From a virus, in the IMG/VR virus record IMGVR_UViG_3300043448_000837, positions 1 through 64,000 of that record: a DNA stretch of 64,000 bases; one strand, given 5' to 3'. Positions 46,724 to 62,451 of the stretch are shown here, piece by piece; position 1 is the stretch's first letter, and each line of letters begins with the position of its first letter. Position numbers and translations under genes: made by a program. A model generated the notes under the pieces. It saw only the letters and a program-made list of their open reading frames with translations. It ran no database searches and had not been told where the DNA came from.

Positions 46724-46797
46724 TGTAATTACTATAGCGCGTTTTGCCCGTTCTGTAAAGGGTGCAAACCGCCCTGGCAGGTACGGTTAACCGCCCT
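46724..46797 (-). promoter_or_regulatory. Early promoter cassette A
   Basis: AGGGCGGTTAACCGTACCT...AGGGCGGTTTGC..TTTACA-17-TATAGT-7-GTG. Confidence 0.85.
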
Positions 46798-47129
46798 CAG
46801 GCACTCTTGAGAACCAGGCGGTCGGCACTGGAGCCGACGCGAAAGGTGCCATTCCAGAGATAAGCACCCCAGAAGTAGGGGTCCTTGTCGGAAACATTCT
46901 GGAACTCGGCGGTAATCGAGCCGTACTGCTTTTGACGATCAACCTCAAACTCCAAGTCACGCAGGTTGCGAACGCCGAAGAACTCTTTCAGGTCTTGCAG
47001 TTTGCTGAAGTACAGATCGCCGACTTTGAACCCAACGAAACGGTTGGCATCGGTCAAGTCCGCACCTTTGCGAACGTATCCGGCTTTGATGACTTGGCCA
47101 GCGACAAGGTTGGAAACGGTTTTCTTCAT
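46797..47129 (-). CDS. Hypothetical early protein
   Basis: Single ORF exactly bracketed by cassettes B and A. Confidence 0.7.
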   Translation of the reverse strand: MKKTVSNLVAGQVIKAGYVRKGADLTDANRFVGFKVGDLYFSKLQDLKEFFGVRNLRDLEFEVDRQKQYGSITAEFQNVSDKDPYFWGAYLWNGTFRVGSSADRLVLKSA

Positions 47130-47203
47130 GTAATTACTATAGCGCCTTTTGCCCGTTTTCGAAAGGGGGCAAACCGCCCTCCGAGGTACGGGAAACCGTA
47201 CCT
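47130..47203 (-). promoter_or_regulatory. Early promoter cassette B
   Basis: AGGTACGG-TTTC-CCGTACCT, TTTCGA-17-TATAGT-6-ATG. Confidence 0.85.
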
Positions 47204-47450
47204 ACTCGGATATTGAAGCGGGGCGGCCCCAGCGGGCGAGCCGCAGGATGCCAGCGTCTCCATCGCCTGCACAGTGCTCAGACCAAAAAGCGATGATTTC
47301 CATTTCCGTCGGCCCCTGCGGCTCGGGCTGGGCCAGAGCGGCGTTGGCTTTAGCTACCAGCGCAGTTTCGTACCCTTCGTACAGGCTGGTGTGCCTGTGA
47401 AGTTCTTGGGTTAGCTCAGCGCACAGCGCACGGAAATTGGGTTCAGTCAT
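47202..47450 (-). CDS. Small paralog, FRALC/ALAQPEPQGP/LARWGRPA family
   Basis: Shares motif blocks with 47447-47752. Confidence 0.7.
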   Translation of the reverse strand: MTEPNFRALCAELTQELHRHTSLYEGYETALVAKANAALAQPEPQGPTEMEIIAFWSEHCAGDGDAGILRLARWGRPASISE

Positions 47451-47752
47451 TGTTGTTCTCCAGTAGTGGCGGGGCGGCCCCAGCGGGCGAGAACGGCGCG
47501 GGCAAAGTCCAACTCTTGTCTGAACTCTTCGGCAAGGAAACCATGGTAACAGGATGTTTCCACTCCGTACAAGCTCATTAGCTCTTCATCTGTTGGCATA
47601 GGCCCCTGCGGCTCGGGCTGGGCCAGGGCGGCGTCAACACGAACAGCAAGCGGTGACTGTTTGATGCGCTCGACTGGAATGCCGGAGTCGATGGCATCCA
47701 TCAGCTCTTGGCACAGCGCACGGAAGTCAGTTTTGGTTTCGTTCGTTTTCAT
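47447..47752 (-). CDS. Small paralog, FRALC/ALAQPEPQGP/LARWGRPA family
   Basis: Shares motif blocks with 47202-47450. Confidence 0.7.
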   Translation of the reverse strand: MKTNETKTDFRALCQELMDAIDSGIPVERIKQSPLAVRVDAALAQPEPQGPMPTDEELMSLYGVETSCYHGFLAEEFRQELDFARAVLARWGRPATTGEQQ

Positions 47753-47826
47753 GTTTTAATCATAGCTCATTTTCGCCCCAGCGAAAAGGGGGCAAACCGC
47801 CCTCCGAGGTACGGTTTCCCGTACCT
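47753..47826 (-). promoter_or_regulatory. Early promoter cassette C
   Basis: AGGTACGG-GAAA-CCGTACCT; TATGAT-6-ATG. Confidence 0.8.
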
Positions 47827-47838
47827 GCTTGGACTTTA

Positions 47839-48318
47839 CTACGTGAAAAGATATTCTTTCCACTCGGGAACAATGCTGCTGTTCAACGTTAGAAGAAAAC
47901 GACTGAACGGCGCGTGGGGTCTTCTGTTCAAAGGAACTCCCCACTCTTCTGGCGTTCTGTTGTCCTTTACGTTGTTGCAGGTGTAGCAGCACGCTACCAT
48001 GTTCTCCCAAGTATCTCCGCCTCCCCGCGACTGCGGCAAAACGTGGTCAATCGTAAGGTCACGATCAGAACCGCAATACTGACAAGTGAAACCGTCACGT
48101 TTTAGAATGAGGCTACGAGAAGGTTTCTTTGCGTTGATGCGCCGAATCGGAAGCCGCACGTATGTGAGCAAACGAATGACTTGCTCGGACAGAATCTGTG
48201 CTTTTTTCTTCAGCACGAGCACAATGGCACGTCGCCAGGAGCAGACGTTGAGAGGCTCATAGCTGGCGTTAAGTACGAGAATACTTCTGTCGATGGCTAG
48301 AGTAGTAGGCGATGACAT
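47839..48318 (-). CDS. HNH endonuclease (McrA-like, bacterial type)
   Basis: LVLNASYEPL, RDGFTCQYCG, TIDHVLPQSRGG..TWEN.VACC..CNN.K. Confidence 0.9.
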   Translation of the reverse strand: MSSPTTLAIDRSILVLNASYEPLNVCSWRRAIVLVLKKKAQILSEQVIRLLTYVRLPIRRINAKKPSRSLILKRDGFTCQYCGSDRDLTIDHVLPQSRGGGDTWENMVACCYTCNNVKDNRTPEEWGVPLNRRPHAPFSRFLLTLNSSIVPEWKEYLFT

Positions 48319-48321
48319 AGT

Positions 48322-48795
48322 TTAACAATCCCCGGTGTAGCAGCCGTCGTAAGGGTCGAAGCCTTGCTCAAGATCCAAGTCCCCTTCCTCCTCGTAGCTA
48401 GGATCCGTATCAATTATAACGTGACCCAGGTAAATCATGCCGTTCTCGTAGCTGCACTCGAACTCCTGAAGTTCTGCGGAGAACTCCAGTATGTGACCCA
48501 GGCCCCTTTCTACGACTTCAGAAAAGTCGGGGTCGCGAATATCGTCGACGCGAATCGCACCAATGGTGCCGGAATCCACCGAGTACTCATTTCCATACGA
48601 ATCCTCGTAGACACCGTCGCCGTAGGCGGTGCCAAACATGAAGAACTTACGACCGTCGGCCAGAATAAACTCGTGCGAGGAGTTGTCGAAAGGAACTAGG
48701 CTGCATACTTCGTCCCATGCGTCGTGCATCACGTAGCACAGATCGCCAATATAGTAACGGACGGGAAGAGAGTTGCTCATTTCGGTTTCGTTCAT
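48322..48795 (-). CDS. Hypothetical phage protein
   Basis: YYIGDLCYVM, TAYGDG.Y, VDSGTIG; leaderless after TATAAT. Confidence 0.7.
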   Translation of the reverse strand: MNETEMSNSLPVRYYIGDLCYVMHDAWDEVCSLVPFDNSSHEFILADGRKFFMFGTAYGDGVYEDSYGNEYSVDSGTIGAIRVDDIRDPDFSEVVERGLGHILEFSAELQEFECSYENGMIYLGHVIIDTDPSYEEEGDLDLEQGFDPYDGCYTGDC

Positions 48796-48860
48796 GTAAG
48801 TATTATAGGTCAGCTTGGGAGCCAGCGGTCAGAAAGGTAGGCGGTTTGAGAACCGGCCTA
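48796..48860 (-). promoter_or_regulatory. Reduced early promoter cassette D
   Basis: TATAAT-6-ATG; upstream inverted repeat taggcggtt/aaccggccta. Confidence 0.65.
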
Positions 48861-49049
48861 CTCGGCTTCCTGCCAGGCGTTGATGGCGTCTCGGGCGATC
48901 TCGTCGTCGGTCATCTGGGCAGCGTCATAAGGCTGGTCGAGGATGTAGCGGACCTCGGCCTCAGCCGCGTAGCGGCAGTCCCAGCCGGCACCGTGCTCGG
49001 CCCAGGCGTCGACAATAGCCATGATCAGTTCGAATCGGTTCATTTCCAT
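48858..49049 (-). CDS. Hypothetical early protein (start MEMNRF)
   Basis: ATG 6 nt after TATGCT of cassette E. Confidence 0.6.
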   Translation of the reverse strand: MEMNRFELIMAIVDAWAEHGAGWDCRYAAEAEVRYILDQPYDAAQMTDDEIARDAINAWQEAE

Positions 49050-49122
49050 GCTATAAGCATAGCTCATTTTGCCAGTTCTGCAAAGGGGGTAAACCGTCCT
49101 CCCAGGTACGGTTAACCGCCCT
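49050..49122 (-). promoter_or_regulatory. Early promoter cassette E
   Basis: Same repeat consensus; supplies the TAA stop of the upstream kinase gene. Confidence 0.8.
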
Positions 49123-49864
49123 GCGCCTCAGCGAGTAGGCGAGTCAGCAGGCGGTCTACCTCCGGCCACTGGGCGCTGGGCCGGTACTTGCGCAGGCGGA
49201 CCACGTGCGACATCTCAGCTGCCAGGGCCTGGGTCCACAAGGGTTCCCCCAGCCTTTGGCGAAGGTGGGCGCACAGAGGCGCAGGGTCGCCACCTGGGTG
49301 TGAGTTGAACAACCGGTGGTAATCGCTGTGCACAGACTGAAGTAATTTACCCAAGTCGAGCACGTAAGACTGGAACAAATTTTGCTTGAAGTTAGGGTCG
49401 ATCAGAACGATGCCCCCGTTATTTTCTACAATGATGTTTTCAAGCGTCAGATCTCCGTGTGAGAACGAGGATGGTAGTGGCTCAATTTCGTCGAGGATTT
49501 CGAAAGTTCGACGAACTATATCACTGTCCGCCAGAGCGACGTGCTCTGAGTGAAGACGATCTTTGTAAGAAACCCAGTCTGCATTTCGCGTTGCTGGGAC
49601 CGTTGACCACAGAAGAATCTGGTCTACCAACGTGTCAATCAGGCGAGTCGATTCAATCTGCGTGCCGCAAACTCCTTCGACAAACTCAATATCGTACTCG
49701 GAACTGGACACGCAAATGGTTTGAGGAAGTCGAATCCCTGGTGTCAAAGTGTACCGCGAGGCAGTACGAAACCAGTCGCACTGCTCAGCGGCATCCTTAC
49801 ACTTCTTTCGTATGAAATCCCCGGAGAAATCCAGGGTCGCACCACTACTTCCCTTCACGAACAA
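49112..49864 (-). CDS. APH/choline-kinase-like phosphotransferase
   Basis: KGSSGA, FSHGDLTLENI, LIDP, DLGKLLQS. Confidence 0.85.
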   Translation of the reverse strand: MFVKGSSGATLDFSGDFIRKKCKDAAEQCDWFRTASRYTLTPGIRLPQTICVSSSEYDIEFVEGVCGTQIESTRLIDTLVDQILLWSTVPATRNADWVSYKDRLHSEHVALADSDIVRRTFEILDEIEPLPSSFSHGDLTLENIIVENNGGIVLIDPNFKQNLFQSYVLDLGKLLQSVHSDYHRLFNSHPGGDPAPLCAHLRQRLGEPLWTQALAAEMSHVVRLRKYRPSAQWPEVDRLLTRLLAEAQGG

Positions 49865-50558
49865 GCTCCCGAATCCGAGCGCAATCGGCCTCGTAAGTTA
49901 GATCGCCCCAAGTTACACCCAGGGAAGAAAGCGAGATTGCCTCCCGAGTCTTGGCCATGTTGATCATATCGGTGATTTCAACCTCGCCACGATCACTCTT
50001 ACGCAGCTCACCAATCGTGTTCAAGTAACCAGCTGGAAAACGCGCGAAGCCGCAGAAGTAACGACCTTCCAGTTGGCCATGAGGTTTTTCAACTACGTAA
50101 TCTTCAATCACGGTAGCCAGCTGCAGGTTTCGCGGACTCAGTGATTTGTGCAGGAAGGTGAAATAAACTGAATTGTCAAGATCTGAACTCAGCAGAACTC
50201 GTTCTGCAATTGGCATTACCCCTTGATAGTAGTTGTCCCCAAACAATACGGTAAACGGTCCGTCAATCACACCGGCCCACGTTGTAATGGCAGCGCCAGG
50301 ACCATAGGTGTCTTCACTCTGGAAGCGCACGATCGGATCACAAATCTTTGATACTTCGTCAAGAACCGGGTGGTAGATCCGTGTCCCGTCCGTTTTCACT
50401 GCCGACCTTGAAAGTGTCAGGTAAATGTTCTCGGCTCCGTTATCCAGAGCGAACAGTGCCGCCAAGTAGGGAAGCGACATGCCATCAAACTTCTCCTCAA
50501 GTTTATTTCGGCCGAACCGAGTGCTACGACCGGCAGCAAGAATGAGTGCGTTCTTCAT
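49845..50558 (-). CDS. Sugar-1-phosphate nucleotidyltransferase (RmlA-like)
   Basis: ALILAAGRSTRF, VLFGDN, VEKP, SDRGEVEITD. Confidence 0.88.
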   Translation of the reverse strand: MKNALILAAGRSTRFGRNKLEEKFDGMSLPYLAALFALDNGAENIYLTLSRSAVKTDGTRIYHPVLDEVSKICDPIVRFQSEDTYGPGAAITTWAGVIDGPFTVLFGDNYYQGVMPIAERVLLSSDLDNSVYFTFLHKSLSPRNLQLATVIEDYVVEKPHGQLEGRYFCGFARFPAGYLNTIGELRKSDRGEVEITDMINMAKTREAISLSSLGVTWGDLTYEADCARIRELVREGK

Positions 50559-50911
50559 TGTGCGATTTCTTTGTATTTTGCGGAGAACTGAGCGGGTGTC
50601 ACCGCTTTGTCGTCAACGTAGTACGCCGCCCACGGTTTTCCAATCTGAATGGAATCGTAAGGCACATCGTATTTAGTGCAGAATTTTTCGATTTCCTCGA
50701 TAACTTCTTGCCTCACACTTTCGATATTTCCGTTTGAGCGCCCCATTCCACGAGCCGTATGAAGAATAATCGTCCACCCTGCCTCCTTCATTGCTCGCAT
50801 ACCCGTGATAACTTCCATCTTTGGGCGCGAGTTCTCGTAGTCCCTGTTTACCGTGATAAGGATTGTGTCGTCAACGTCGAAGACAATGGTTTTCTTTGGG
50901 TCGGGAATCAT
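50555..50911 (-). CDS. HAD class IIIC phosphatase (capsule-biosynthesis type)
   Basis: VFDVDDTI, HTARGM, VPYD, GKPW, YYVDDKA. Confidence 0.88.
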   Translation of the reverse strand: MIPDPKKTIVFDVDDTILITVNRDYENSRPKMEVITGMRAMKEAGWTIILHTARGMGRSNGNIESVRQEVIEEIEKFCTKYDVPYDSIQIGKPWAAYYVDDKAVTPAQFSAKYKEIAQ

Positions 50912-50982
50912 AGAGAGTCAGGAGCTGATCTAAACATAGGTCGCGAGAGCTGCAAGTAAAGGGCGGAAACCCGCCCAGTTTC

Positions 50983-51807
50983 TCACACAGGAATGACTTC
51001 TGTCGTCAGAGTTTTTAGGCGAATCTCAGCGTATCGAGAAAGCCACTCGTCCTTCGTCCGTCTGGTCTTAGGTGTTGCCAGCTCAGAGAACTCAGCGCAG
51101 ATTCGCTCAACCGTCTCGTTGTTGGTTTGAAGTTTCCGTTCCAGGTCTTCGCAAGTGCCACCACCACCGGTGTGTTGCTTTGCCTTGACGCAAACGTTGT
51201 CGAACCGTAGGGTTCCCTTTCCGTGCACAGTGTGGTACAGCGACAGGAAGTAATCGTCTTTCATGCTGTACTCCGTGATTCGATCAAACGCTGGGTCGCC
51301 AGCGTAGAAACCGAAGGCGTGGCCCATAATGAACTTAAGACCCACGGTGATCTTAGGGTGGAGGAAGCCTTTGTTACGCACTGCGTAGAAACCCCAGAGG
51401 CCGACATCTCGTCGCCCGCTCATTCGAAACCCTCGCTCAATCAGCTCGGACATATTTTCCACCGAGTTTAGGCGGCTCGGGTGGTCCAGCGGCTTTTGCG
51501 TCCCGGTCAGCGGGGCAAGCAGTTCGAGTTCCTCAACGGCGCTAACATCGTCGTCAAATGAAAAAACAGCTGTTCCCTTGTCGTAATAGTTGGAAATGAA
51601 GCGACGTTGATTCGTCAATCCTTTCTCACCAACAACAATCTTGTACTGCGGGTTTGAACTTTGATATTTTTCCAACTCCTGGTCGTTGGCCACGAACAAA
51701 GTCACTCGGGACAGATCGACGTCGGTTTTTTCAAGATAATTCAGAGTCAGTTTTCGGACGCCGTCTGGGCGCCCGTAAGTTGGTATGGCAATCTGGTAAT
51801 CAAGCAT
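50983..51807 (-). CDS. GT-A fold glycosyltransferase, TET-associated (TAGT/GREB1-like)
   Basis: IAIPTYGRP, KGLTNQRRFI, SFDDD, KDDY, GGG; start reassigned to MLDYQ. Confidence 0.8.
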   Translation of the reverse strand: MLDYQIAIPTYGRPDGVRKLTLNYLEKTDVDLSRVTLFVANDQELEKYQSSNPQYKIVVGEKGLTNQRRFISNYYDKGTAVFSFDDDVSAVEELELLAPLTGTQKPLDHPSRLNSVENMSELIERGFRMSGRRDVGLWGFYAVRNKGFLHPKITVGLKFIMGHAFGFYAGDPAFDRITEYSMKDDYFLSLYHTVHGKGTLRFDNVCVKAKQHTGGGGTCEDLERKLQTNNETVERICAEFSELATPKTRRTKDEWLSRYAEIRLKTLTTEVIPV

Positions 51808-53164
51808 TGGGAGTAACGTCGGGTTGTCCTTTGATGTTGGTGTTGGAGCAGCGCTCCATCTTTTGAAGCTTCTTGTACTCATCCCACTCAGGGCTGCACC
51901 ACATTCCGGGGAAGGAACCGTTCCACTTCGGCTCACCTGTTCCTCGCTCAGGGTGGTTGGTTGTAACCCATTCCATGAAGGATCGTCGGCAAGCTTCACA
52001 TTCCAGGTCATCCAGGGTAACGATTGCGTCCCGTGAGTAAAACACAAGAACAAGGTTCTCAGCATCCTCGCTCAGTGGAACGAATGGAGTTTGACCGTGA
52101 ACAAAGCCCTGGTTGTCTCCAATCAGAATGTCACCGTGGCGCATGTGGAAACCAAGGCCAAGTTGAGGCATCACAAAGTCAACGCCATCGTAGGAACCCC
52201 GGTCCATACAAACGAGAGCGGCCACAGCGTCCTTTGCGTTCTGACCGTCGTAATGCCAGCAGGTGGAAAAGTTGTAGTTACAGGTGATTGAGGAGAAGAC
52301 CGTGTCAAACAGGCTGTAACGGGTATCTGCGATATCCTTGTACCTATTTCGCAGGATCCCCCACTCCCTCGGAAAGAGGTCTTTTGTCAGAGAATCAACT
52401 TCCTTGTAGAAAGGTGCGAAAGAAGCGAAGTCGTCGTACCGCTCCATCGTCGGGGCAGTCAACCGGGCAAAGGGTGTTCTCCCTGAGCGAGTGATTGTGC
52501 CTAGAACGGCTGAGAAAACTTTCTGCCCCCGAGGTTGCTTCGTTACGTAACGTGCTTTCCCTGCGATCGCAGCCGCTTTCCGGTCCCCAGAGGGAGCCCA
52601 CTCTCGAACCAACCAATTGTCGAACCACGCCAGTTTGGCAGCATTTCTGTTCAAGATGGCCGTCTGTTTCAGGTCAAACGGCGTGCTCTTTTTTCGGACG
52701 AGGCTGTCCCACTTTTCAATCTCGTCGAGATCCACTAAACCATCCGTTTCGACTTTTCCTACAAAGTAGGTTGTTCTAGAAACGCGAGTATCAGCGGCGA
52801 CGATTGCTCTGGCTTCTTCCAAGTCGGCCACAAGGCCCTTCACAGCCTTACTGAAGAACACTTTCTGACCTTCGGTTAGCCGGATTTCCACGTTCGTGGT
52901 GATTTCCGAACCAGCGGCGTTCCCGCGTTGATCTGACAGAAGGGACTTACAGGCCCAGCGCCAGTACTCAAATTCTTTGCTGTTGGGTCGGATATTGGCT
53001 GCTGCTTTCAGACCTTTTTTGCGAAAAGCGACGGCAAGTGAACCATCGGGGCGGTACACGTTGCAATCTTCATCGATAAGTTCAAGGAAATCCGTCGATG
53101 AAGGCACTCCACCAAGTCGTTTGTCGTCAAACGGAACTAGCGCGTCTAAGTAAATTTCTCTCAT
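51800..53164 (-). CDS. TET/JBP-family Fe(II)/2-oxoglutarate dioxygenase
   Basis: RGNAAG, FSSITCNYNFSTCWHYDGQN (HxD), GDILIGD, VHGQTP, LVFYSR. Confidence 0.82.
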   Translation of the reverse strand: MREIYLDALVPFDDKRLGGVPSSTDFLELIDEDCNVYRPDGSLAVAFRKKGLKAAANIRPNSKEFEYWRWACKSLLSDQRGNAAGSEITTNVEIRLTEGQKVFFSKAVKGLVADLEEARAIVAADTRVSRTTYFVGKVETDGLVDLDEIEKWDSLVRKKSTPFDLKQTAILNRNAAKLAWFDNWLVREWAPSGDRKAAAIAGKARYVTKQPRGQKVFSAVLGTITRSGRTPFARLTAPTMERYDDFASFAPFYKEVDSLTKDLFPREWGILRNRYKDIADTRYSLFDTVFSSITCNYNFSTCWHYDGQNAKDAVAALVCMDRGSYDGVDFVMPQLGLGFHMRHGDILIGDNQGFVHGQTPFVPLSEDAENLVLVFYSRDAIVTLDDLECEACRRSFMEWVTTNHPERGTGEPKWNGSFPGMWCSPEWDEYKKLQKMERCSNTNIKGQPDVTPNA

Positions 53165-53188: not shown

Positions 53189-53253
53189 TTTTACCCACCT
53201 CATTATAACGGTTCGGGTCAGCGGTAAGCAAAATAAAAGGCGGTTTCCCGCCC
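53189..53253 (-). promoter_or_regulatory. Dual promoter region of the TET operon
   Basis: GGGTAAAA at 53189-53196, TATAAT at 53202-53207, GGCGG-N4-CCGCC box at about 53238-53253. Confidence 0.65.
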
Positions 53254-53275: not shown

Positions 53276-53890
53276 TTACTGCGTGTATTCGCAGAGGATA
53301 TCGGACTCTTGGTCAAAGGCGCAGTTGAGCAATTTTCGCATTTGGCGGGCGACATCAAGGTCTTTACCGAGGTAAAGAGTCGTTTTCAGAAGGTCGCTGT
53401 ACACAACCGGTTGCTCTTTGGTGATTTCCTCGTCATAGAAGTTGACTCGGTAAGCAACGCCATTTGATTCGCAAAGTTCGTTTATTCGCTTTGCGTGCAG
53501 AATGAAATTCTCTCCGTGACCCTTGATTCCATCATCAAGATTCTTCATGTCGAGATAAGCGTGAAGCATCTCGTGAAGCAAGGTGCTGCGAACTTCCAGG
53601 GGATCTTTCGCAGCGTGGCGGGCGAGTTTGATTTCCCCAGTTCCTCCGTTATTTGGCTTGTAAGTCCCCCACTTAGTTCTGTAACGACCTTCCCACTTGA
53701 GACGCGGATACGAGTTCCAGGTCTCTCCGTTTTCGTCGGTGCGAGAGACAACCTTGGGGACCGGGAGTTCTCCGTTGAAATACTTCGCATTGAACTCGGC
53801 GTACAACTCGCCAAGGTCATAAATCGCGCAAGGGTTGGGGCAGAACCGTTCAAGAAACGAGTTTGAAACTACCGTTTTGAATTCCGTCAT
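53276..53890 (-). CDS. SprT-like zinc metalloprotease
   Basis: FNAKYFNGEL, TLLHEMLH, HGENF. Confidence 0.85.
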   Translation of the reverse strand: MTEFKTVVSNSFLERFCPNPCAIYDLGELYAEFNAKYFNGELPVPKVVSRTDENGETWNSYPRLKWEGRYRTKWGTYKPNNGGTGEIKLARHAAKDPLEVRSTLLHEMLHAYLDMKNLDDGIKGHGENFILHAKRINELCESNGVAYRVNFYDEEITKEQPVVYSDLLKTTLYLGKDLDVARQMRKLLNCAFDQESDILCEYTQ

Positions 53891-54132
53891 CAGTCGCGAG
53901 CGGAGTGGATGGACTCGTTGATCTTCGCGGCGTAGGCCGTGGGGCTCATGCCGGTGACGGCGGACCTCCACTCCAGGAAGGCCACCTCGGCCCGGTCGCA
54001 GAGGTCTTCGTACTTGGCGATGGCATGCGGTGCCCAGGGGCTGGCCATGGCACCCTGCTTGTGGTAGAAGGCCAGCTTGACCTGGGTGGCTTCTTCGTAG
54101 AGGGCTTTGAGTTGGGTTTGAACGTCTTTCAT
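53890..54132 (-). CDS. Hypothetical early protein
   Basis: Leaderless after cassette H. Confidence 0.65.
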   Translation of the reverse strand: MKDVQTQLKALYEEATQVKLAFYHKQGAMASPWAPHAIAKYEDLCDRAEVAFLEWRSAVTGMSPTAYAAKINESIHSARD

Positions 54133-54205
54133 GCTTTAATTATGGCTCATTTTGTCGCGTTTGTAAAGGGGGCAAACCGCCCTCCCAGGTACGGTTAACC
54201 GCCCT
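54133..54205 (-). promoter_or_regulatory. Early promoter cassette H
   Basis: TTTACA-17-CATAAT-6-ATG plus tandem boxes. Confidence 0.85.
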
Positions 54206-54456
54206 CACATCCACCAGCCGATCTCGCGATCGCCATTCATTTGCTCCAGCTGGTAATCGTGGAAGGTTTCGCAAACGTATTCAACAGTAGCGTTATCCGG
54301 CAGTTCGTCGCGGCAGATTACGTACACTTCGTTGTAAAGATTGTCAAAGGCTTCTTTGTCACCATCGTAACCGGCGTAGCAGCAATCGTTGAGAAGCTCC
54401 TTGTGAAGCTGAAAGCTGGCGGCGAGGGCTTTCTGGGAGAGGTCGGTTTTCTTCAT
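54205..54456 (-). CDS. Hypothetical acidic early protein
   Basis: Single ORF exactly bracketed by cassettes I and H. Confidence 0.7.
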   Translation of the reverse strand: MKKTDLSQKALAASFQLHKELLNDCCYAGYDGDKEAFDNLYNEVYVICRDELPDNATVEYVCETFHDYQLEQMNGDREIGWWM

Positions 54457-54530
54457 GTAATTACTATAGCGCCTTTTGCCCGTTTTCGAAAGGGGGGCAA
54501 ACCGCCCTCCCAGGTACGGTTAACCGCCCT
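54457..54530 (-). promoter_or_regulatory. Early promoter cassette I
   Basis: Near-identical to cassettes B and K. Confidence 0.85.
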
Positions 54531-54756
54531 AGTCCAGCTTGGATTCAGGTTCGTTAAACTGGTCGAGCAATTCGGGGGCGTAATCTTCAGCCAGGTCCCA
54601 CAGATCCGTCCAATCTTGCCAAACTGTTTGCTCGTAGTGCAGATCCCAAACAATCTGACGAAGCTGCTCTAACGTCAACTGGGAGACCAATCCGTCTACG
54701 ATCGCGGAAACAACCTCTTCGCGATCTTCTTCAATCCACTCAGTAGGACGATTCAT
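54529..54756 (-). CDS. Hypothetical acidic protein
   Basis: Stop TAG overlaps cassette I. Confidence 0.65.
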   Translation of the reverse strand: MNRPTEWIEEDREEVVSAIVDGLVSQLTLEQLRQIVWDLHYEQTVWQDWTDLWDLAEDYAPELLDQFNEPESKLD

Positions 54757-56661: not shown

Positions 56662-56848
56662 TGCTATCAGTGTGAAGACGCCAGTTTACATCACGAGCGG
56701 TTGGAATCTTGAGAGCCATCCGCAGCGTGTTGTTTTCGTGAATCAGCAGCTTGACCATGTCGAGCGTTGTAACCTCGCACTCGGGAAACTGCTTGCCCAC
56801 TTCGTGAGCGATTCGCATGTATTCGGTTTTGTAGTCAAGTTCAATCAT
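56654..56848 (-). CDS. Hypothetical protein
   Basis: ATGA coupling. Confidence 0.55.
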   Translation of the reverse strand: MIELDYKTEYMRIAHEVGKQFPECEVTTLDMVKLLIHENNTLRMALKIPTARDVNWRLHTDSND

Positions 56849-57201
56849 TCGGGCAAAGCCTCCAGTGCGCGGCGGATGTTGGCAAGATCTTTCATCTGGT
56901 CACTGAAGAATTCTCCCGTTGCTACAAGGCGTTTGAGTCCCTCCAGTGCTACCTCCTTCAAGCTCGGTGGCCTTGGACGGCGATAGTTGTAGAACTCAAT
57001 CACATCTTCTTCCTCCCACCCAGCACACTGCTTGAGGTAATTTCCGCAAGCCAGTAGCTCCTGATCTGCGCCCCATTGGGCGGCACTGGCAGCCAAGTGC
57101 AGATCGCTTTGCGCTACTCGCACTGGCGTGCCTTCATGCCAGATCTCGCCAATCCATTTCTCTACGATCTCCGGCGGTGGGGTAAGTTTGGGGTCAGTCA
57201 C
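56845..57201 (-). CDS. Paralog family TPPPE/AAQWGAD/RPxPPSLKE/IRRALEALPE
   Basis: Shares motif blocks with 61787-62131; GTG start. Confidence 0.7.
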   Translation of the reverse strand: MTDPKLTPPPEIVEKWIGEIWHEGTPVRVAQSDLHLAASAAQWGADQELLACGNYLKQCAGWEEEDVIEFYNYRRPRPPSLKEVALEGLKRLVATGEFFSDQMKDLANIRRALEALPE

Positions 57202-57385
57202 TACATGCCTCCTCTCGAAGTTCAGTTGTAATCCAATCAATCTGAGGACCAAACGCCTCCTCCAACCATATCGCCACTTCTCGAATAGCAGCGCGAGCTT
57301 CCGGTTGGCCAGTAGTTTTTGAACGTGCGTATTCAACGTAGATTGCGTGTTGAACCCGATTCACTAACGAGTCGTAGTCACTCAT
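57194..57385 (-). CDS. Hypothetical protein (EARAAIREVA motif)
   Basis: Packed ORF. Confidence 0.55.
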   Translation of the reverse strand: MSDYDSLVNRVQHAIYVEYARSKTTGQPEARAAIREVAIWLEEAFGPQIDWITTELREEACSD

Positions 57386-58177: not shown

Positions 58178-58386
58178 TTCTTCTCCTTAAGCTTCAGGTA
58201 ATTATACTCCGTGGCGCACTGTTTGGGTTGTTCGGTGCAGTAGATGATTCCGGCGTTTCTGCCACGTTCGATGTTACCTTTCTCTGGCAGAGTTGCGCCG
58301 ATAGAAATTAACATTCCCGAAACCACAAGGACGATAAAGCATGTCATAAATCCGACAAACACTGATTCTCCTTCTGTTCTTATCAT
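58174..58386 (-). CDS. Small membrane protein
   Basis: One hydrophobic helix. Confidence 0.55.
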   Translation of the reverse strand: MIRTEGESVFVGFMTCFIVLVVSGMLISIGATLPEKGNIERGRNAGIIYCTEQPKQCATEYNYLKLKEKK

Positions 58387-58625
58387 TCTCCACCCTCCAG
58401 TTCGTCGGCGATGAGCTCCAGGGTGCTTGCGCGGATGTACTCAACGCCGCCTATGAACTCAGTGTCTACCCGCCAATCGTTTGCAACAGCTCGCAGTGAA
58501 GCGGCGATAGTGGATGCCATCCGCGCTGCTTCATTGGAAACGTCGCAAGGATTAAGGTCGTATTCCTTGCGTATAGCTGCTGCAAGCACCGCATGCGCGG
58601 CGGGGGAGAGTTCAATCATTGGCAC
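58383..58625 (-). CDS. Paralog family LSPAAxAVL/AAxLRA/IADELEG
   Basis: Shared motif blocks. Confidence 0.65.
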   Translation of the reverse strand: MPMIELSPAAHAVLAAAIRKEYDLNPCDVSNEAARMASTIAASLRAVANDWRVDTEFIGGVEYIRASTLELIADELEGGE

Positions 58626-58818
58626 CCTCCAGCTCCTCGGCGATCAGGCGGATCTGGGAGGAATCCACAGCGCGGACACCAAGAACGTCGTAACCAAGTT
58701 GCTCGTCAAGGGCACGCAGTGCGGCGGCAAGAGCTTTGCGATCGGTTTCGAACGAAGGCTCATTGTAAAGGCCAATTCGGTTGAAGGCAGTGTAAACTGC
58801 AAGAGCTTGAGAAGTCAT
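58612..58818 (-). CDS. Paralog family LSPAAxAVL/AAxLRA/IADELEG
   Basis: AAALRA, IAEELEGAN. Confidence 0.65.
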   Translation of the reverse strand: MTSQALAVYTAFNRIGLYNEPSFETDRKALAAALRALDEQLGYDVLGVRAVDSSQIRLIAEELEGAND

Positions 58819-59018
58819 TCGGGCAAAATAAAGTCAATGTCGGAGGCGATTGCGTTGAGAATCGCGGTCTCTTCCCACAGAAGAGTGCCGTAGTCGCGGG
58901 AACCCTTCTCGCAGGCACGATTGCACTCGTGGGTCAGATTGTGCGCCTCGTTGCGAAGGGCTTGGATCACACGCTCCCAATCGGCGCGGCAGAGGGTGAA
59001 GGTGTACAAAGGTTCCAT
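58815..59018 (-). CDS. Hypothetical protein
   Basis: Coupled at both ends. Confidence 0.55.
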   Translation of the reverse strand: MEPLYTFTLCRADWERVIQALRNEAHNLTHECNRACEKGSRDYGTLLWEETAILNAIASDIDFILPE

Positions 59019-59296
59019 CAGTTGAAACCCTCCAGTTCGTCGGCGATGGCGAGGATTGCCTCACGGATTGAGTCACTTCTTGCCTCCATTCCTTGGTCCC
59101 ACTCGATGTGGCCAGTGAATGAGGCATAGTCATCGGGTGCTACCTGATCAGCAGCAGCTCGCAGAGCGGCGGCCACTTCCAATCGCGTGCATTGAAAAGC
59201 AACGATTTCGGTTTCCGGGTGACAAACGGAAGTTGCTGCATTCAGCACCGCCTGCGCGGCGGGAGAGAGAGTGGTCACAGCGGTTTCGTTTTCCAT
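59018..59296 (-). CDS. Paralog family LSPAAxAVL/AAxLRA/IADELEG
   Basis: Leaderless after cassette J. Confidence 0.7.
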   Translation of the reverse strand: MENETAVTTLSPAAQAVLNAATSVCHPETEIVAFQCTRLEVAAALRAAADQVAPDDYASFTGHIEWDQGMEARSDSIREAILAIADELEGFN

Positions 59297-59371
59297 GAAT
59301 TAACTATAGCGCCTTTTGCCCGTTTTCGAAAGGGGGGCAAACCGCCCCATCAGGTAGGGGAAACCGTCCCT
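59297..59371 (-). promoter_or_regulatory. Early promoter cassette J
   Basis: TATAGT-6-ATG plus tandem boxes. Confidence 0.85.
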
Positions 59372-59527: not shown

Positions 59528-59806
59528 TCAAAAAACATCGTTTGGTGTGAATACTAGGCTAGCGTCTGCTGCCCACTCCACGATTCTATCTCCCAAGTCA
59601 AGTGCTTCTTCCGGGGATAGAAGAATCTCCTCAAAGTCACCATACTCAGATCGCCGCCCCAGAATATAGCGAGCAGCGTGTACAACTCGCTTCCAGAACG
59701 GTAACGGGCTTAGGTGTATTTCGATAAACAGGTCTTCGGTGTCCGAGGTAACTACGAGCGAATGCTGAATACTTCCGCAGCGGCAAAGGTATAGCGTTCG
59801 CTTCAT
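59528..59806 (-). CDS. Hypothetical protein
   Basis: CRCGS..H, FWKRV...YILG. Confidence 0.6.
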   Translation of the reverse strand: MKRTLYLCRCGSIQHSLVVTSDTEDLFIEIHLSPLPFWKRVVHAARYILGRRSEYGDFEEILLSPEEALDLGDRIVEWAADASLVFTPNDVF

Positions 59807-60195
59807 CGCTTCACGTGAATTACAGGAACGTTGTTCCTCTGCAGCATCTCGATATTCCCAGCGTTATCGTCAGCCCAAACAAGCGGATCACCGTAGAACG
59901 AACGGATCCTGTTTAGGTGATCTTCCTTGATAACGTGATCCGGAACTCCCTCTTGATCGTCTGGGCGCATGAAGATTTGAATCGGAAGAAGGCCGCGCAT
60001 CTTCAACCATTCGGTTGTTTGTGGGCGCAGTCGTTCAGGGCGAGCGGTCGAGATTAGCAGAGGACGTTCAGCCTGGAGGGCGATTGCCACAAGAAGCATC
60101 GCGGCATTTTCTCTCAGGGTTAGGAGGTTGTTCTCGTCGTAATGCTCTGAGGTAAGGGTGCCATCAATGTCAAAGACAACAGGTTGTTTTCTCAT
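59803..60195 (-). CDS. HAD phosphatase (T4 PNK 3'-phosphatase-like)
   Basis: VVFDIDGTL, STARPE, T.EWL, FMR, K, ADDN. Confidence 0.8.
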   Translation of the reverse strand: MRKQPVVFDIDGTLTSEHYDENNLLTLRENAAMLLVAIALQAERPLLISTARPERLRPQTTEWLKMRGLLPIQIFMRPDDQEGVPDHVIKEDHLNRIRSFYGDPLVWADDNAGNIEMLQRNNVPVIHVKR

Positions 60196-60449
60196 ACCAA
60201 TTTTGCTTGCAGTTTGTCCAGGGTCTGAAGAAGGTTGTTCATTCGGTTTGCCTCTTGCTGAGCCTCGTCCAGTTGCCCCCTCGTAACGTAGGTGGCGATT
60301 GTTTTCGAGCGCCCCGCGCGATAAGTTTCTGCGTAGGCGTCGGCGCATAGTGCCAGAATCGCCCACTGTTCGTTGGTCAGGGTTACCGAGCGACTGATTT
60401 CGTTCTCAGGCTCTCCTGCGAAAACAACTAGCTCTGTGTCAGTCAACAT
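60192..60449 (-). CDS. Hypothetical protein
   Basis: Packed ORF. Confidence 0.55.
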   Translation of the reverse strand: MLTDTELVVFAGEPENEISRSVTLTNEQWAILALCADAYAETYRAGRSKTIATYVTRGQLDEAQQEANRMNNLLQTLDKLQAKLV

Positions 60450-60678
60450 TTTCTCTCTCTTTGAAGAATTCCGCTGCGATTCTGTCCGCGTTTCGCTTTA
60501 TTTCGTAGCGCACCCATGGGCTGTCCGGGTGATAGCGAACCTTGAACCAGAAACGTTGAAGCTCGATGCGGAGGAGCTTGGATTGCAACACTAACCAGTC
60601 ATACACGTTGCTATCTTGAACAACAACGTAAACGAGGCAAGCGCCAATCGTGAACCAAGTTAGTGTGGCGACGTTCAT
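60439..60678 (-). CDS. Small membrane-anchored protein
   Basis: N-terminal hydrophobic helix. Confidence 0.55.
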   Translation of the reverse strand: MNVATLTWFTIGACLVYVVVQDSNVYDWLVLQSKLLRIELQRFWFKVRYHPDSPWVRYEIKRNADRIAAEFFKERENVD

Positions 60679-60860
60679 AGTATATTTGCCGAGTCAACTA
60701 CTACAAGAGTTGAATCGATAGCAACTAGCCACGTGTTCAACAGTTTTTTCAGTTTATCGTTATCAACGTTCTCACCGTTGATGTTTAGGTTGAGGTCAGT
60801 GTCGTGATCGCCGTTGTAAGACCGGTAGGAAAAGTCAACGGTGTTCTTTTCAGAGCTCAT
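60675..60860 (-). CDS. Hypothetical protein
   Basis: Start MSSEKN. Confidence 0.5.
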   Translation of the reverse strand: MSSEKNTVDFSYRSYNGDHDTDLNLNINGENVDNDKLKKLLNTWLVAIDSTLVVVDSANIL

Positions 60861-61122
60861 TTTGTTTCTTGATGTTGAGTAGGAGAAGGAAGCCTTCGTA
60901 TTTTGAGAAGGTGGCAACAGGTTGCCAGTGGTTCAGATAAGAGGTCGAAAGATACCACTCGTCGTCTTTTTTGTAGACGCGAGCGACAGGAACACCCCCA
61001 TAACTAGCAGCGTAAATCACCTCCGCTTCCGAGGAGGAGACGATCCACAATGGTGACTGATAGTCCAAGGGTTTACCGTACTCGACGAATGTTCTCCCAG
61101 TAAGGAGAGTCTGGACGTTCAT
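60850..61122 (-). CDS. Hypothetical protein
   Basis: Packed ORF. Confidence 0.5.
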   Translation of the reverse strand: MNVQTLLTGRTFVEYGKPLDYQSPLWIVSSSEAEVIYAASYGGVPVARVYKKDDEWYLSTSYLNHWQPVATFSKYEGFLLLLNIKKQNEL

Positions 61123-61381
61123 TGGGTTGCACCTTGATCGGAGTGAGAGTTGCTTTGCGACGCTTGAGAATTTCCCAGAGTCCCGCTTTCAATCGCGGGT
61201 CGGTAGTAGTATTATAGGCAGTCACGAGTTTCGTAAATGCCTCGTCGCGTTCGGGAATGCGGAGGTTTTCACGCGAGAGAATGTCTTTCGTGAGGTCAAG
61301 ATCGCCAGGTTTGCCTTGAACTTTTGCCCTGCCGAAATTGCCGGTGTGAACGCCAGTAGTTCGTAGTCCGTGATTTGCCAT
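61073..61381 (-). CDS. Hypothetical protein
   Basis: TGATG coupling. Confidence 0.6.
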   Translation of the reverse strand: MANHGLRTTGVHTGNFGRAKVQGKPGDLDLTKDILSRENLRIPERDEAFTKLVTAYNTTTDPRLKAGLWEILKRRKATLTPIKVQPNERPDSPYWENIRRVR

Positions 61382-61587
61382 CAGTTAGCACCCTCCAGCT
61401 CGTCGGCGATGGCGAGGAGGATGTCAACAGGGACTACCTCAATCGTTTTATTTACCGCTACGTCGGCAAAGGTACTTTGTTTTGCAGCAGCTCGCAGCAC
61501 GGCGGCAACCGACAGCCTGTTGTCGCAAGGTGCTTTCAGGTAGGCATCCAGTACCGCCTGCGCGGCGGGGGAGAGAGGTTCAGTCAT
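61381..61587 (-). CDS. Paralog family LSPAAxAVL/AAxLRA/IADELEG
   Basis: MTEPLSPAAQAVL...AIADELEGAN. Confidence 0.7.
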   Translation of the reverse strand: MTEPLSPAAQAVLDAYLKAPCDNRLSVAAVLRAAAKQSTFADVAVNKTIEVVPVDILLAIADELEGAN

Positions 61588-61790
61588 AGATTTGAAAGAA
61601 AAACGAGTAGTTGTGCGATCAGAAGCAAAGTCAGGCCTATCGGGCCCATAATGACAAAGTAGGCGTAGAAAATCAACAGCATCATTGCGTCTACAAGTTC
61701 CATGCCTCTGATCCAATGGCGCTCGCTGAACGCGAAAATCAAGCACGAAAAGATGCCAGCGATGATCCAGAGGGTGGTGCTGCCAGTCAT
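61584..61790 (-). CDS. Small membrane protein
   Basis: Two hydrophobic segments. Confidence 0.55.
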   Translation of the reverse strand: MTGSTTLWIIAGIFSCLIFAFSERHWIRGMELVDAMMLLIFYAYFVIMGPIGLTLLLIAQLLVFLSNL

Positions 61791-62131
61791 TCAGGCAGCG
61801 CCTCCAGTGCGCGGCGGATCAGGTCAGAGTCCCCGCCAGATGTTTCAAATGCCGCTGCAAATGACTCAAAGTGGATCAGCGCCTGCTCCTTCAAGCTCGG
61901 CGGCTTGGGGCGGCGAATCATACGAAGATCTGTTGAAACATGCTTGCCGTCGCAAATCAATTCACGGGCAAGCACCTCGCAGCACGCCTCCAGCTCAGTG
62001 TCGGCGCCCCATTGAGCGGCGCGATCAATCATGTAATCTTCGCGCTCAACGCTAATAACCTTGAACGGCGACTCTGATAGCCATTCACACCGCAGCTCCG
62101 GCGGTGGGGTGATGGGGTGTTGGTTAGTCAT
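61787..62131 (-). CDS. Paralog family TPPPE/AAQWGAD/RPxPPSLKE/IRRALEALPE
   Basis: Shares motif blocks with 56845-57201. Confidence 0.7.
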   Translation of the reverse strand: MTNQHPITPPPELRCEWLSESPFKVISVEREDYMIDRAAQWGADTELEACCEVLARELICDGKHVSTDLRMIRRPKPPSLKEQALIHFESFAAAFETSGGDSDLIRRALEALPE

Positions 62132-62141
62132 GTTGGTTAAT

Positions 62142-62378
62142 TCAGTTGCCAGGAAAGGTGATCGTGAGCTCATCGCTCCAGAGAGCAGAACTTTCACAGC
62201 GAGACAGGTGCATCACGCAGCCTCCGCCAACCATTGTGAAGTCAGGGTCAAGTCGAACTAGGAAAGGTTGGTTGGAGTATTCAACTCGGCAGCAAAGGTA
62301 GTGACCCGGTGCGGTAGGTCTGTTGCGAGGTTTAAGGGTTAGGTTCGTTGTGAGGGGCACGGGGTCGTTTTCGTTCAT
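62142..62378 (-). CDS. Hypothetical early protein
   Basis: Leaderless after cassette K. Confidence 0.6.
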   Translation of the reverse strand: MNENDPVPLTTNLTLKPRNRPTAPGHYLCCRVEYSNQPFLVRLDPDFTMVGGGCVMHLSRCESSALWSDELTITFPGN

Positions 62379-62451
62379 GAATTAACTATAGCGCCTTTTG
62401 CCCGTTTTCGAAAGGGGGCAAACCGCCCTCCCAGGTACGGTTAACCGCCCT
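62379..62451 (-). promoter_or_regulatory. Early promoter cassette K
   Basis: AGGGCGGTTAACCGTACCTGGGAGGGCGGTTTGCCCCCTTTCGA-17-TATAGT-6-ATG. Confidence 0.85.

Follow-up and report, generated by a model that had tools for sequence, protein, structure and literature searches.

What is the unit that recurs between the early genes of an uncultured lake cyanophage, and does it serve gene expression, gene exchange or both? We analysed a window of 64,000 nucleotides (nt), positions 1 to 64,000 of the 114-kb IMG/VR record IMGVR_UViG_3300043448_000837. Its source is a lytic phage whose topoisomerase and pol-gamma-type polymerase are nearest to those of Synechococcus phage S-CBWM1 and other cyanophages; it also encodes a Mu-like portal, is not T4-type and has S-CBWM1 as its nearest isolate. 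A glutamine riboswitch was found in the record. The unit, of approximately 75 bases, comprises a stop codon, GC-rich stem-loops, a host-type promoter and a start codon at the predicted RNA start. We consider it probable, at about two chances in three, that each unit is a compact, composite cassette with a regulatory role in the early accessory region (upstream stop, stem-loop core, promoter and leaderless start) that also acts as a homology patch for gene exchange. An initial annotation, which had seen here the regulon of a dimeric phage protein and an integron-like array of recombination joints, is as a whole partly supported.

A repeat search revealed an 81-nt family with eight copies (46716-46796, 47122-47202, 47744-47824, 49041-49121, 54124-54204, 54449-54529, 59289-59369 and 62370-62450). 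The box2 17-mer matched eight times with at most three mismatches, always on the minus strand (0.18 expected; 0 of 100 shuffles reached eight), and the box1 19-mer gave five exact matches against 0.00 expected. The eight minus-strand elements of the initial annotation therefore lie where it had placed them, far beyond chance, but the array is larger than the eight: a profile search of the 114-kb record found 20 full copies between 46.7 and 99.2 kb, in the early region and all on the minus strand, besides reduced copies, and no copies in its structural and replication part. The three reduced copies annotated in the window are real, but they differ among themselves (48796-48860, 50961-50976 and 53238-53253). 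Family-wide counts are based on 148 distinct element copies from approximately 40 related lake contigs. The window contains the following cassettes and reduced copies.

62379-62451, minus strand: full cassette (representative), with box1/hairpin 1 at 62433-62451, box2/hairpin 2 at 62413-62429, -35-like TTTCGA at 62408-62413, a 17-nt spacer, -10 TATAGT at 62385-62390, 6 nt, and ATG 62376-62378 of ORF 62142-62378; core RNA fold -22.8 kcal/mol, z -2.4.
59297-59371, minus strand: full cassette whose hairpin 1 is a variant (GGGACGG..CCCTACC) and whose fold is weak (z +0.3); ATG 59294-59296 opens ORF 59018-59296, which is missing from relative G001 and from RNA-run contigs, the latter skipping 59006-59286.
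54457-54530, minus strand: full cassette at the conserved upstream gene end 54529-54756, a hot spot.
54133-54205, minus strand: full cassette (TTTACA, 17 nt, CATAAT) that with 54457-54530 brackets module 54205-54456; fold -24 kcal/mol, z -3.2.
49050-49122, minus strand: full cassette; upstream ORF 49112-49864 has its stop TAA in the hairpin-1 loop, downstream ORF is 48858-49049; its left flank has three different right partners among relatives.
47753-47826, minus strand: full cassette with a perfect hairpin 1 (GGTACGG-GAAA-CCGTACC); upstream partner of the putative G001 deletion crossover.
47130-47203, minus strand: full cassette with a perfect hairpin 1 (GGTACGG-TTTC-CCGTACC), whose fold has two hairpins (-23.2 kcal/mol); identical to cassette 54457 in the promoter and in the first 13 nt of the ORF; downstream partner of the same crossover.
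46724-46797, minus strand: the array's last cassette, lying upstream of the replication genes, with AGTG instead of ATG at +1 and an in-frame ORF to ATG 46705.
48796-48860, minus strand: reduced cassette with one long hairpin, TTTCTG-like -35, TATAAT, 6 nt and the ATG of ORF 48322-48795; G001 has a full cassette at the orthologous site.
50912-50976, minus strand: single-hairpin variant, perfect GGGCGG-GTTT-CCGCCC (50961-50976) against TTTACT, -10 TATGTT, a short leader and ATG 50911; fold -12.8 kcal/mol, z -2.7.
53238-53253, minus strand: stand-alone terminator hairpin of the same family, GGGCGG-GAAA-CCGCCT then TTTTATTTT and a T-rich tail, downstream of ORF 53276-53971.

In the full elements a GC-rich, four-arm core of 45 nt lies directly against TTTNNN and is followed by 17 nt, TATNNT, 6 nt and ATG. 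As initially described, box1 and box2 start 22 nt apart, and a -35-like hexamer (TTTACA/TTTCGA) stands 17 nt from the -10 (TATAGT/CATAAT/TATGAT and, in addition, TATGCT); the distance from -10 to ATG, however, is 6 nt rather than the 6-7 nt first given. Among 91 parsed full elements across the family, the spacer is 17 nt in 90 and the -10-to-ATG distance 6 nt in all 91, so that the promoter reading and the leaderless geometry proposed for the window hold family-wide. ATG lies exactly 6 nt past the -10 in 115 of the 148 distinct copies, and many of the others keep CA in its place, read as CAG. The start codon said to follow every element does so except at 46724. The upstream stop overlaps the first element bases, as had been claimed, for the ORFs ending at 46797, 47202, 48858, 54205 and 54529, and the ORF ending at 49112 stops inside box1, as noted, with its TAA in the loop; a gene is doubtful for the ORF ending at 62450, which has only 46 codons and a TTG start.

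Counted from the cassette ATG, ortholog substitutions at the three codon positions number 39/16/103 over codons 1-26 and 16/5/26 over codons 1-10, and this third-position pattern begins at the ATG itself. Positions +4 to +11 are 54-89% A, and only 35 distinct first-three-codon strings occur among 76 unrelated ORF families. Together, the fixed ATG distance, the codon constraint starting at the ATG and the A-rich first codons strongly predict leaderless mRNAs. The RNA data consist of assembled contigs, in which transcript 5′ and 3′ ends are not visible. Transcription would be driven by a host sigma-70-type promoter (TTTNNN, 17 nt, TATNNT) whose TTT is the TTT trailing the hairpin; because the predicted start base, 7 nt past the -10, is the A of the ATG in an A-rich start (ATG-RAA-AAY), the first gene of each block would be translated without a leader. 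Shine-Dalgarno motifs are scarce in the phage (19% of genes versus 9% at random positions), which fits a picocyanobacterial host, as picocyanobacteria are Shine-Dalgarno-independent and place 6-8% of their primary start sites no more than 10 nt from a start codon (PMC5607370).

We think it improbable that transcription instead starts elsewhere, or that the -10-like hexamer is unused, with TATNNT-N6-ATG-RAA-AAY acting as a translation-initiation signal on read-through polycistronic RNAs. The hairpin tail has just three U, which makes read-through likely; one RNA-run contig spans a complete element (54334-54530); some other AU-rich start signal must exist, because the phage seldom uses Shine-Dalgarno motifs; and conservation extends into the first codons. 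A translation signal, however, leaves the -35/17-nt/-10 geometry kept in 90 of 91 copies unaccounted for, as well as the non-coding tRNA operon, which is also headed by the cassette unit, here as four ATG-less versions in tandem. ATG-less copies moreover keep the pyrimidine-purine CA at the predicted -1/+1, the block is missing from internal genes of the same gene blocks, and in S-CBWM1 the same promoter form stands 25-30 nt from the start codons. For the core RNA the folding energies lie between -22.8 and -24 kcal/mol (z -2.4 to -3.2), and the reduced copies are recognisable as terminators; the U-tract behind the hairpin is only three U long, most full copies escaped a simple terminator scan, the 148-copy alignment yielded no consensus structure in RNAalifold and the hairpin arms show no clean covariation. 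Two pairing imperfections hardly vary: in 116 of 118 copies box2 shows a C.C mismatch or else a bulged C, and in approximately 75% of copies hairpin 1 has a G.A mismatch. The first two loop bases are TT in almost all; the near-invariant mismatches and retained TT look more like sequence-specific recognition than a plain terminator. The two boxes might accordingly be operators, at which a phage or host DNA-binding protein at phased CGGTT-NN-CC sites near -44 and -66 would switch the whole early promoter set on and off, the hairpin potential being a by-product of dyad symmetry. This has perhaps one chance in five and is compatible with termination: beyond the mismatch and the loop bases, the boxes start about two helical turns apart (22 nt), their left arms are direct repeats of each other, the outer arms of hairpin 1 vary almost independently, and the sites are common to all approximately 20 promoters, as in a regulon. 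It sits poorly with the occurrence of both GGGCGG and GTACGG half-sites in one genome, with contig L011, where the box2 left arm follows the box1 right arm (complementarity, not repeat identity), and with the corresponding site of S-CBWM1, a single ordinary perfect hairpin whose loops vary. Copies that stand alone are canonical terminators, G.U pairs are tolerated on the RNA strand that would be C.A mismatches on the other, and no candidate regulator was found. We therefore favour the composite cassette, in which the upstream gene's stop is often built in (TGA/TAG at the first bases, or TAA in the first loop) and the 45-nt core, folding as two hairpins or one long hairpin ending CCCCC-UUU, most likely serves to attenuate or stop transcription coming from upstream and to shield the 3′ end of the RNA made there.

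Between cassettes lie small genes: among 91 parsed full elements, the downstream ORF has a median of 84 codons. The cassette ORFs matched no family of Pfam or PHROG. Two modules are, as first described, single ORFs each between two elements, and a third differs among relatives.

46797-47129, minus strand: single-ORF module, 110-aa ORFan, with a cassette on each side.
54205-54456, minus strand: single-ORF module, 83-aa ORFan, with a cassette on each side; in relative G005 its family occupies a different slot, again directly behind a cassette.
47202-47752, minus strand: two-gene module of tandem paralogs (101 and 82 aa), present in G000, absent from G001; G002 has one 155-aa ORF instead.

The G001 element at 16307 is chimeric: upstream it matches the context of G000 element 47753 (0.94-1.00 identity) and downstream that of element 47130 (0.98-1.00), with the switch inside box2, a pattern that points to precise deletion of module 47202-47752. 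Of the recurrent flanks, 12 of 25 on the left and 16 of 26 on the right were seen with at least two partners, and six relatives each have a different promoter-ORF cassette behind the conserved gene end 54529-54756. A joint of 54488 to 47785 within the core occurs in RNA-run contigs of two studies, in assemblies that break at repeats, that is, exactly at the elements. These observations bear out the proposal that the elements are recombination joints. Adjacency is broken in relatives at 10 of 13 element junctions versus 22 of 57 plain junctions (odds ratio 5.3, p 0.014), although the relatives are metagenomic contigs of common ancestry and the exchanges not independent events; the elements thus appear to be hot spots but not the only joints. 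As module boundaries they stand, but not as the sole ones, since plain junctions are broken too and paralogous genes recombine. Homology breakpoints fall in elements in 16 of 81 cases (4.3% of the sequence) and at plain gene junctions in 34 of 81 (11%), a per-base density no higher in elements, so the association may partly reflect viable exchanges ending between genes. The approximately 20 direct copies in each genome, and those of co-occurring relatives, have nearly identical cores. The core therefore probably also serves as a homology patch, at which promoter-plus-ORF units would be deleted, inserted, replaced or moved by ordinary homologous recombination.

Site-specific exchange by a dedicated recombinase, with the core as a structure-specific site in the manner of integron attC, seems very unlikely to us. 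The core does form an imperfect palindrome of four arms, with unpaired bases that are conserved, crossovers fall within it, and the 54488-to-47785 joint has the topology expected of an excised circle; a variant gene order would explain that joint just as well, and the depth of the joint equals that of neighbouring contigs. Breakpoints also occur at the 5′ edge, at the box2/-35 border, just past the ATG and between paralogous genes, as general homologous recombination would give. The integron-like array of the initial annotation fails on the same grounds: no Phage_integrase-family protein or tyrosine recombinase was found in the 114-kb record, which is incomplete, each cassette has its own promoter, and the crossovers resemble ordinary homologous exchange in the 45-nt core. 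Many copies, a palindromic core and intergenic placement would also suit selfish dispersed palindromes (REP- or MITE-like) with an accidental promoter likeness, but every copy lies on the coding strand at a gene start at a fixed ATG distance, upstream stop codons are fitted into the elements, the structural region is free of copies, and neither target duplications nor a transposase was found; we give this next to no credence.

The regulatory cassettes do resemble integrons, with their IntI tyrosine recombinase, attI and attC sites and cassettes that have no promoter of their own and are transcribed from a single Pc, in being arrays of small exchangeable genes limited by imperfect palindromic sites, and differ in the promoter carried by each unit and the integrase not found here. 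The closest known system is instead, as initially suggested, the promoter-early stem-loop (PeSL) cassettes of the T4-type phages RB49/phi1, PST/T4 and nt-1/KVP40 (Arbiol et al. 2010, PMC2839356; Comeau et al. 2014, PMC4122927). Both are small intergenic units with a sigma-70-like early promoter and a GC-rich stem-loop, present in many direct copies that flank ORFans in a plastic early region; both show indels and replacements between close relatives, with crossovers inside the motif, including the stem-loop region and the -10-to-ATG stretch, and neither has a known dedicated recombinase. Promoter activity, terminator activity and mini-circles have been demonstrated experimentally for PeSLs (PMC2839356, PMC4122927); for the present cassettes, promoter and terminator activity are predicted. 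The present phage lies outside the T4 type, its stem-loop, directly against the -35 and without an AT-rich UP-like region, is a double unit with four arms, the upstream gene's stop codons are part of the element, and the ATG at the predicted +1 would leave no 5′ UTR. The elements are thus the (predicted) leaderless form of the known T4 PeSL shuffling cassettes and not a new kind of system.

S-CBWM1 (Aokuangvirus, NC_048106), of the same lineage, has terminator-promoter units at the same early-region position, with a perfect GGGCGG-loop-CCGCCC hairpin against TTTACA/TTTGCA, a 17-nt spacer and a TAnnnT -10 (TAAAGT/TAAGCT). BLAST found no DNA similarity. Where the window lineage has a doubled imperfect core and predicted leaderless starts, S-CBWM1 shows a single perfect hairpin whose loops vary and a leader of 25-30 nt before the start codon. 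A familiar leaderless mRNA is that of lambda cI from PRM (review by Moll et al. 2002, cited in PMC5607370). The cassettes would share with it a 5′-terminal AUG, the lack of a Shine-Dalgarno motif and an A-rich unstructured start. To our knowledge, leaderless mRNAs in phages of Gram-negative hosts are those of single genes, whereas here most promoters of a whole early programme, in a cyanophage, are predicted to be leaderless.

A repeat search of the window returned an 81-nt family with eight copies, which recovers all eight of the elements proposed in the initial annotation. Box2 (17 nt) occurs eight times and on the minus strand only, against 0.18 occurrences expected, and box1 (19 nt) has five exact occurrences against 0.00 expected. 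Alignment together with a pattern scan gave the minus-strand order box1, box2 starting 22 nt later, TTTACA or TTTCGA, 17 nt, a -10 hexamer (TATAGT, CATAAT, TATGAT or TATGCT), exactly 6 nt and ATG. The array is larger than had been claimed: a profile of the eight copies found 20 in the whole 114-kb IMG/VR virus record, whose first 64 kb make up the window, all on the minus strand and all within 46.7-99.2 kb, and none in its structural or replication part. Four tandem copies precede the tRNA operon, where a purine-rich non-coding start takes the place of the ATG. The three reduced copies that had been annotated alongside the full elements exist, but they are not of one type.

Elements and reduced copies in the window
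46724, 47130, 47753, 49050, 54133, 54457, 59297, 62379 (first coordinates), minus strand: full elements
48796-48860, minus strand: single-hairpin cassette, whose ortholog in the related metagenomic genome G001 is a full element
50912-50976, minus strand: perfect hairpin (50961-50976) and promoter with a leader; the hairpin is GC-rich and has a U-run
53238-53253, minus strand: plain stand-alone terminator, a GC-rich hairpin with a U-run

Scanning the whole record against all Rfam families gave no match at the elements. The region and a single element were queried by megablast and blastn against a set of 50,697 phage records, with no match; no isolate carries the cassette. Nearly all genes of the window lie on the minus strand, in the order small early genes, topoisomerase II, pol-gamma-type DNA polymerase and structural genes (Mu-like portal, baseplate J, terminase), and the nearest match in both gene order and sequence is Synechococcus phage S-CBWM1 (NC_048106; 52-57% amino-acid identity). 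A cyanobacterial host is well supported by this likeness, by a DNA polymerase that matches almost exclusively cyanophages, by approximately 30 tRNAs found with Rfam, by a glutamine riboswitch (RF01739, 53.9 bits, L097:14800-14861, record positions 98,800-98,861) downstream of the most upstream cassette at 99.1 kb, and by a group I intron beyond it (RF00028, 68.3 bits, L097:16638-17516, record positions 100,638-101,516). The habitat label of the coded runs is lake water, but such runs make up a small share of the sequence. The cassette ORFs were assigned to no Pfam or PHROG family.

The exact 18-mer formed by box2 and TTT was found in 67 stretches from about 40 IMG/VR contigs, 56 of which align to the window genome at 65-97% identity, and five relatives were fetched whole or in large part. 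Across all this material the ATG lies exactly 6 nt past the -10 hexamer in 115 of 148 distinct element sequences (78%); many of the remaining copies read CAG at this place, retaining the C(-1)/A(+1) pair. The promoter layout and the leaderless geometry proposed in the initial annotation hold at the level of sequence, as the pattern TTTNNN, 17 nt, TATNNT has its 17-nt spacer in 90 of 91 parsed full elements and the distance from -10 to ATG is 6 nt in 91 of 91. A simple scan for sigma-70-like promoters scored two window copies at 10 of 12. A sigma-70-type -10 hexamer occupies positions -12 to -7, and after six more bases +1 falls on the first base of the ATG; the predicted 5′ end of the transcript is thus the A of the cassette start codon. 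A phage RNA polymerase would be another possible reader of these promoters, but a scan of the large ORFs showed no such enzyme and the hexamers fit the host sigma-70 type. Relatives of the region are present in four lake metatranscriptome runs as short assembled contigs, in which no starts, ends or strands are visible; contig ends at the repeats are assembly artefacts, and we therefore draw no claims on starts or terminators from the RNA runs.

The cassette start is AUG, not GUG or UUG, and opens a real coding frame (median 84 codons in the 91 parsed full elements). Substitutions between orthologs, counted by codon position in the ATG frame, number 16/5/26 over codons 1-10 and 39/16/103 over codons 1-26. 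Positions +4 to +11 are 54-89% A, and only 35 first-three-codon strings occur among 76 unrelated ORF families, ATGGAAAAC for example being common to 12 of them; the conserved element therefore extends into the first codons. Genes internal to blocks have no such conserved start block, and a Shine-Dalgarno-like motif precedes only 19% of the non-cassette genes, versus 9% of random positions. We take the ATG as the true start because the third-position excess begins with the first codons, the A-rich start is shared, block-internal genes do not have it and Shine-Dalgarno motifs are scarce. In picocyanobacteria, translation is reported to proceed largely without Shine-Dalgarno pairing, and 6-8% of primary start sites lie no more than 10 nt away from the start codon (PMC5607370); in S. 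elongatus, 19 transcription start sites were scored as yielding leaderless transcripts (PMC6091082). We found no description of leaderless cyanophage genes in the literature searched. The 17-nt spacer in many copies holds a small dyad of its own, which takes in the TTT of the -35 and the A-run before the -10 (TTTCGCC-GGA-GGCGAAA, TCAGAC-GCA-GTCTGA), and differing sequences retain the symmetry (for example L090:18895-18985, L055:1747-1837 and L067:5808-5898).

The 45 nt upstream of the -35 comprise four arms, arranged as L1-loop-R1, spacer and L2-loop-R2, with L1 resembling L2. The majority type folds into one long hairpin, L1 pairing with R2 and R1 with L2 (-22.8 to -24 kcal/mol, z -2.4 to -3.2), and the GGTACGG type into two hairpins (-23.2 kcal/mol); one core variant folds no better than shuffled sequences, and the opposite strand of the core folds worse. 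RNAalifold yielded no consensus structure from a gappy alignment of 148 copies and was replaced by direct pair counts on 118 parsed copies. Among these, four inner pairs of hairpin 1 are retained in 86-100%, with G.U common, pair 5 is a G.A mismatch in about 75%, box2 has a C.C mismatch or a bulged C in 116, and the loops nearly always read TT[TA]N. The half-sites vary and the outer arms assort nearly independently; in one contig (L011) the box2 left arm tracks the box1 right arm, a hint of complementarity. As had been annotated, upstream stop codons either reach into the first bases of an element or sit in the box1 loop: among full elements with a preceding ORF of at least 40 codons, that ORF ends inside the element in 62 of 87.

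Built-in stop codons in the 62 elements
First bases of the element: TGA or TAG, 31 elements
TTAA loop: TAA, 23 elements
Inter-box spacer: TGA, 8 elements

In full copies the hairpin is followed by UUU only. Where hairpins of this family stand alone with a T-rich tail, they are ordinary terminators, and at the homologous places S-CBWM1 has a single perfect hairpin (GGGCGG-loop-CCGCCC) that abuts TTTACA or TTTGCA and is followed by 17 nt, TAAAGT or TAAGCT and a leader of 25-30 nt. From these two observations we read the core as a putative terminator-derived stem-loop whose trailing TTT also begins the -35. Set beside S-CBWM1, the cassette illustrates how a unit of this type can evolve out of a plain terminator-promoter junction.

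Repeated hairpin-promoter units in S-CBWM1 (locus L076; several share the spacer GACTGGCCNCNNTGACC)
about 7640-7716: hairpin-promoter unit
11550-11626: hairpin-promoter unit
14885-14960: hairpin-promoter unit
16615-16689: hairpin-promoter unit
17995-18071: hairpin-promoter unit

Box2-like hairpins joined to the window-type promoter form, here with leaders (..TACTTCAGTCCA), also occur in a 277-kb contig (L012, L015) and a 190-kb contig (L062, L070) with almost no DNA similarity to the window genome; either the phages follow common host rules for promoters and terminators, or the unit has passed from one phage lineage to another. The conserved imperfections of the core make a protein-binding role possible, as the operator reading of the initial annotation would have it. 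We identified no cognate DNA-binding protein for the boxes, and the likeness of the GTAC-containing arms to sites for NtcA (GTA-N8-TAC) or to a cyanobacterial LexA box was rejected on spacing.

A wider reading, to which we give roughly one chance in eight, joins a translation apparatus shifted by infection, behind a leaderless early programme, to a fold switch in the core tied to the ribosome at the built-in stops. Infection, or an early phage product, would tip picocyanobacterial translation towards leaderless initiation, with nearly the whole early programme on 5′-AUG messages, so that early phage genes would be translated selectively and host messages shut out. The four-arm core may toggle between two hairpins and one as the ribosome stops at the built-in stops, so that read-through into a following block would be tied to translation of the block before it. 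Apart from this wider reading, confirmation of the predicted starts would give, in one phage family, upwards of 100 natural leaderless messages of diverse sequence in picocyanobacteria, where translation without Shine-Dalgarno pairing is the rule yet poorly understood, and the cassette would be a ready-made compact expression part that packs terminator, promoter and start into 75 nt.

The cassettes are not a new kind of system. Their closest known counterpart is the PeSL found in T4-type phages, which pairs a terminator stem-loop with a sigma-70-like early promoter; many copies stand among ORFans of hyperplastic regions, crossovers fall within the motif and mini-circles form (PMC2839356, PMC4122927). 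The analogy drawn in the initial annotation stands, in that the cassettes appear to work like PeSL: each copy carries a putative sigma-70-like early promoter sequence, many copies (20, in 46.7-99.2 kb only) lie beside ORFans in a plastic, non-essential region, and indels and replacements among close relatives have their crossovers inside the motif. Unlike PeSL, the cassette is carried by a phage that is not a T4-type myovirus (Mu-like portal, pol-gamma-type DNA polymerase, S-CBWM1 as nearest isolate), its stem-loop is doubled, imperfect and directly against the -35, and it has built-in stop codons and an ATG at the predicted +1. PeSL-type modular gene shuffling thereby reaches beyond T4-type phages into a cyanophage lineage unrelated to them. 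The integron-like array that had also been suggested fell away: integrons hold promoterless cassettes expressed from one common promoter, whereas each unit here has its own promoter-like sequence, and PF00589 found no IntI-type tyrosine recombinase in the incomplete 114-kb record, with positive controls.

Comparison of relatives bears on the proposal that the elements are joints for gain and loss of genes. Where the window genome has two elements, G001 has one, the upstream part of which is the context of element 47753 (identity 0.94-1.00) and the promoter and ORF of which are those of element 47130 (0.98-1.00), with the switch inside box2; this chimeric element marks the precise loss or gain of a two-gene module (47202-47752). 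In 153 unique element contexts, two or more different downstream partners occur with 12 of the 25 upstream flanks that recur, and two or more upstream partners with 16 of the 26 downstream flanks that recur. Six different promoter-plus-ORF units follow the end of gene 54529-54756 in six contigs, and the 54205-54456 family occupies a different slot in another relative (G005), again right after an element. An ORF family retains its own promoter spacer; what travels is therefore a promoter together with its ORF, and the shared core is the joint. In contigs of lake RNA libraries from two studies, 54488 is joined to 47785 inside the core, which has the topology of a circle and fits a variant gene order equally well.

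The link to the next gene is interrupted in one or more relatives at 10 of 13 element junctions; among plain junctions, with one artefact removed, the count is 22 of 57 (odds ratio 5.3, p 0.014). Counted per base, the elements hold 16 of 81 homology breakpoints in 4.3% of the sequence and plain gene junctions 34 of 81 in 11%, an about equal enrichment; as the elements are no denser, the claim of a hot spot rests on the per-junction test and the chimeric elements. RNA-library contigs of two studies also join 57084 to 62093/62099, a deletion of approximately 5 kb whose ends lie in two paralogous genes, so recombination there was not at a cassette. The proposal thus stands for the chimeric element, the re-assorted flanks and the per-junction excess and fails as an exclusive rule: plain junctions and paralogs break too, and the elements are frequent joints, though others exist and the elements are not demonstrably special. 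A search for a RecA-family protein was negative, and host or unrecognised phage recombination functions would therefore have to act.

The region around these joints has several further features. Paralogous small-gene families (56842-57336 and 61784-62197; 58380-59271 and 61378-61577) share conserved ends (..ADELEG), with GGAGGG as a Shine-Dalgarno-like motif and TGATG as an overlapping junction. The adjacent 101- and 82-aa genes at 47202-47752 (minus strand) are tandem paralogs with internal repeats 97-100% identical and 251-290 nt apart, and the related genome G002 has a single 155-aa ORF in this slot. Directly upstream of cassette 47753, beside a module that varies among relatives, lies an HNH endonuclease gene (47839-48318, minus strand). 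A candidate cytosine hypermodification pathway is encoded at 49112-53164 (minus strand) by genes for a TET/JBP dioxygenase (51800-53164), a TET-associated glycosyltransferase (50983-52065), an NTP-transferase-like protein (49845-50558) and a kinase-like protein (49112-49864); the cluster lies in one cassette-headed block with the single-hairpin promoter at 50912-50976 inside it, and its slot holds other genes in G002.
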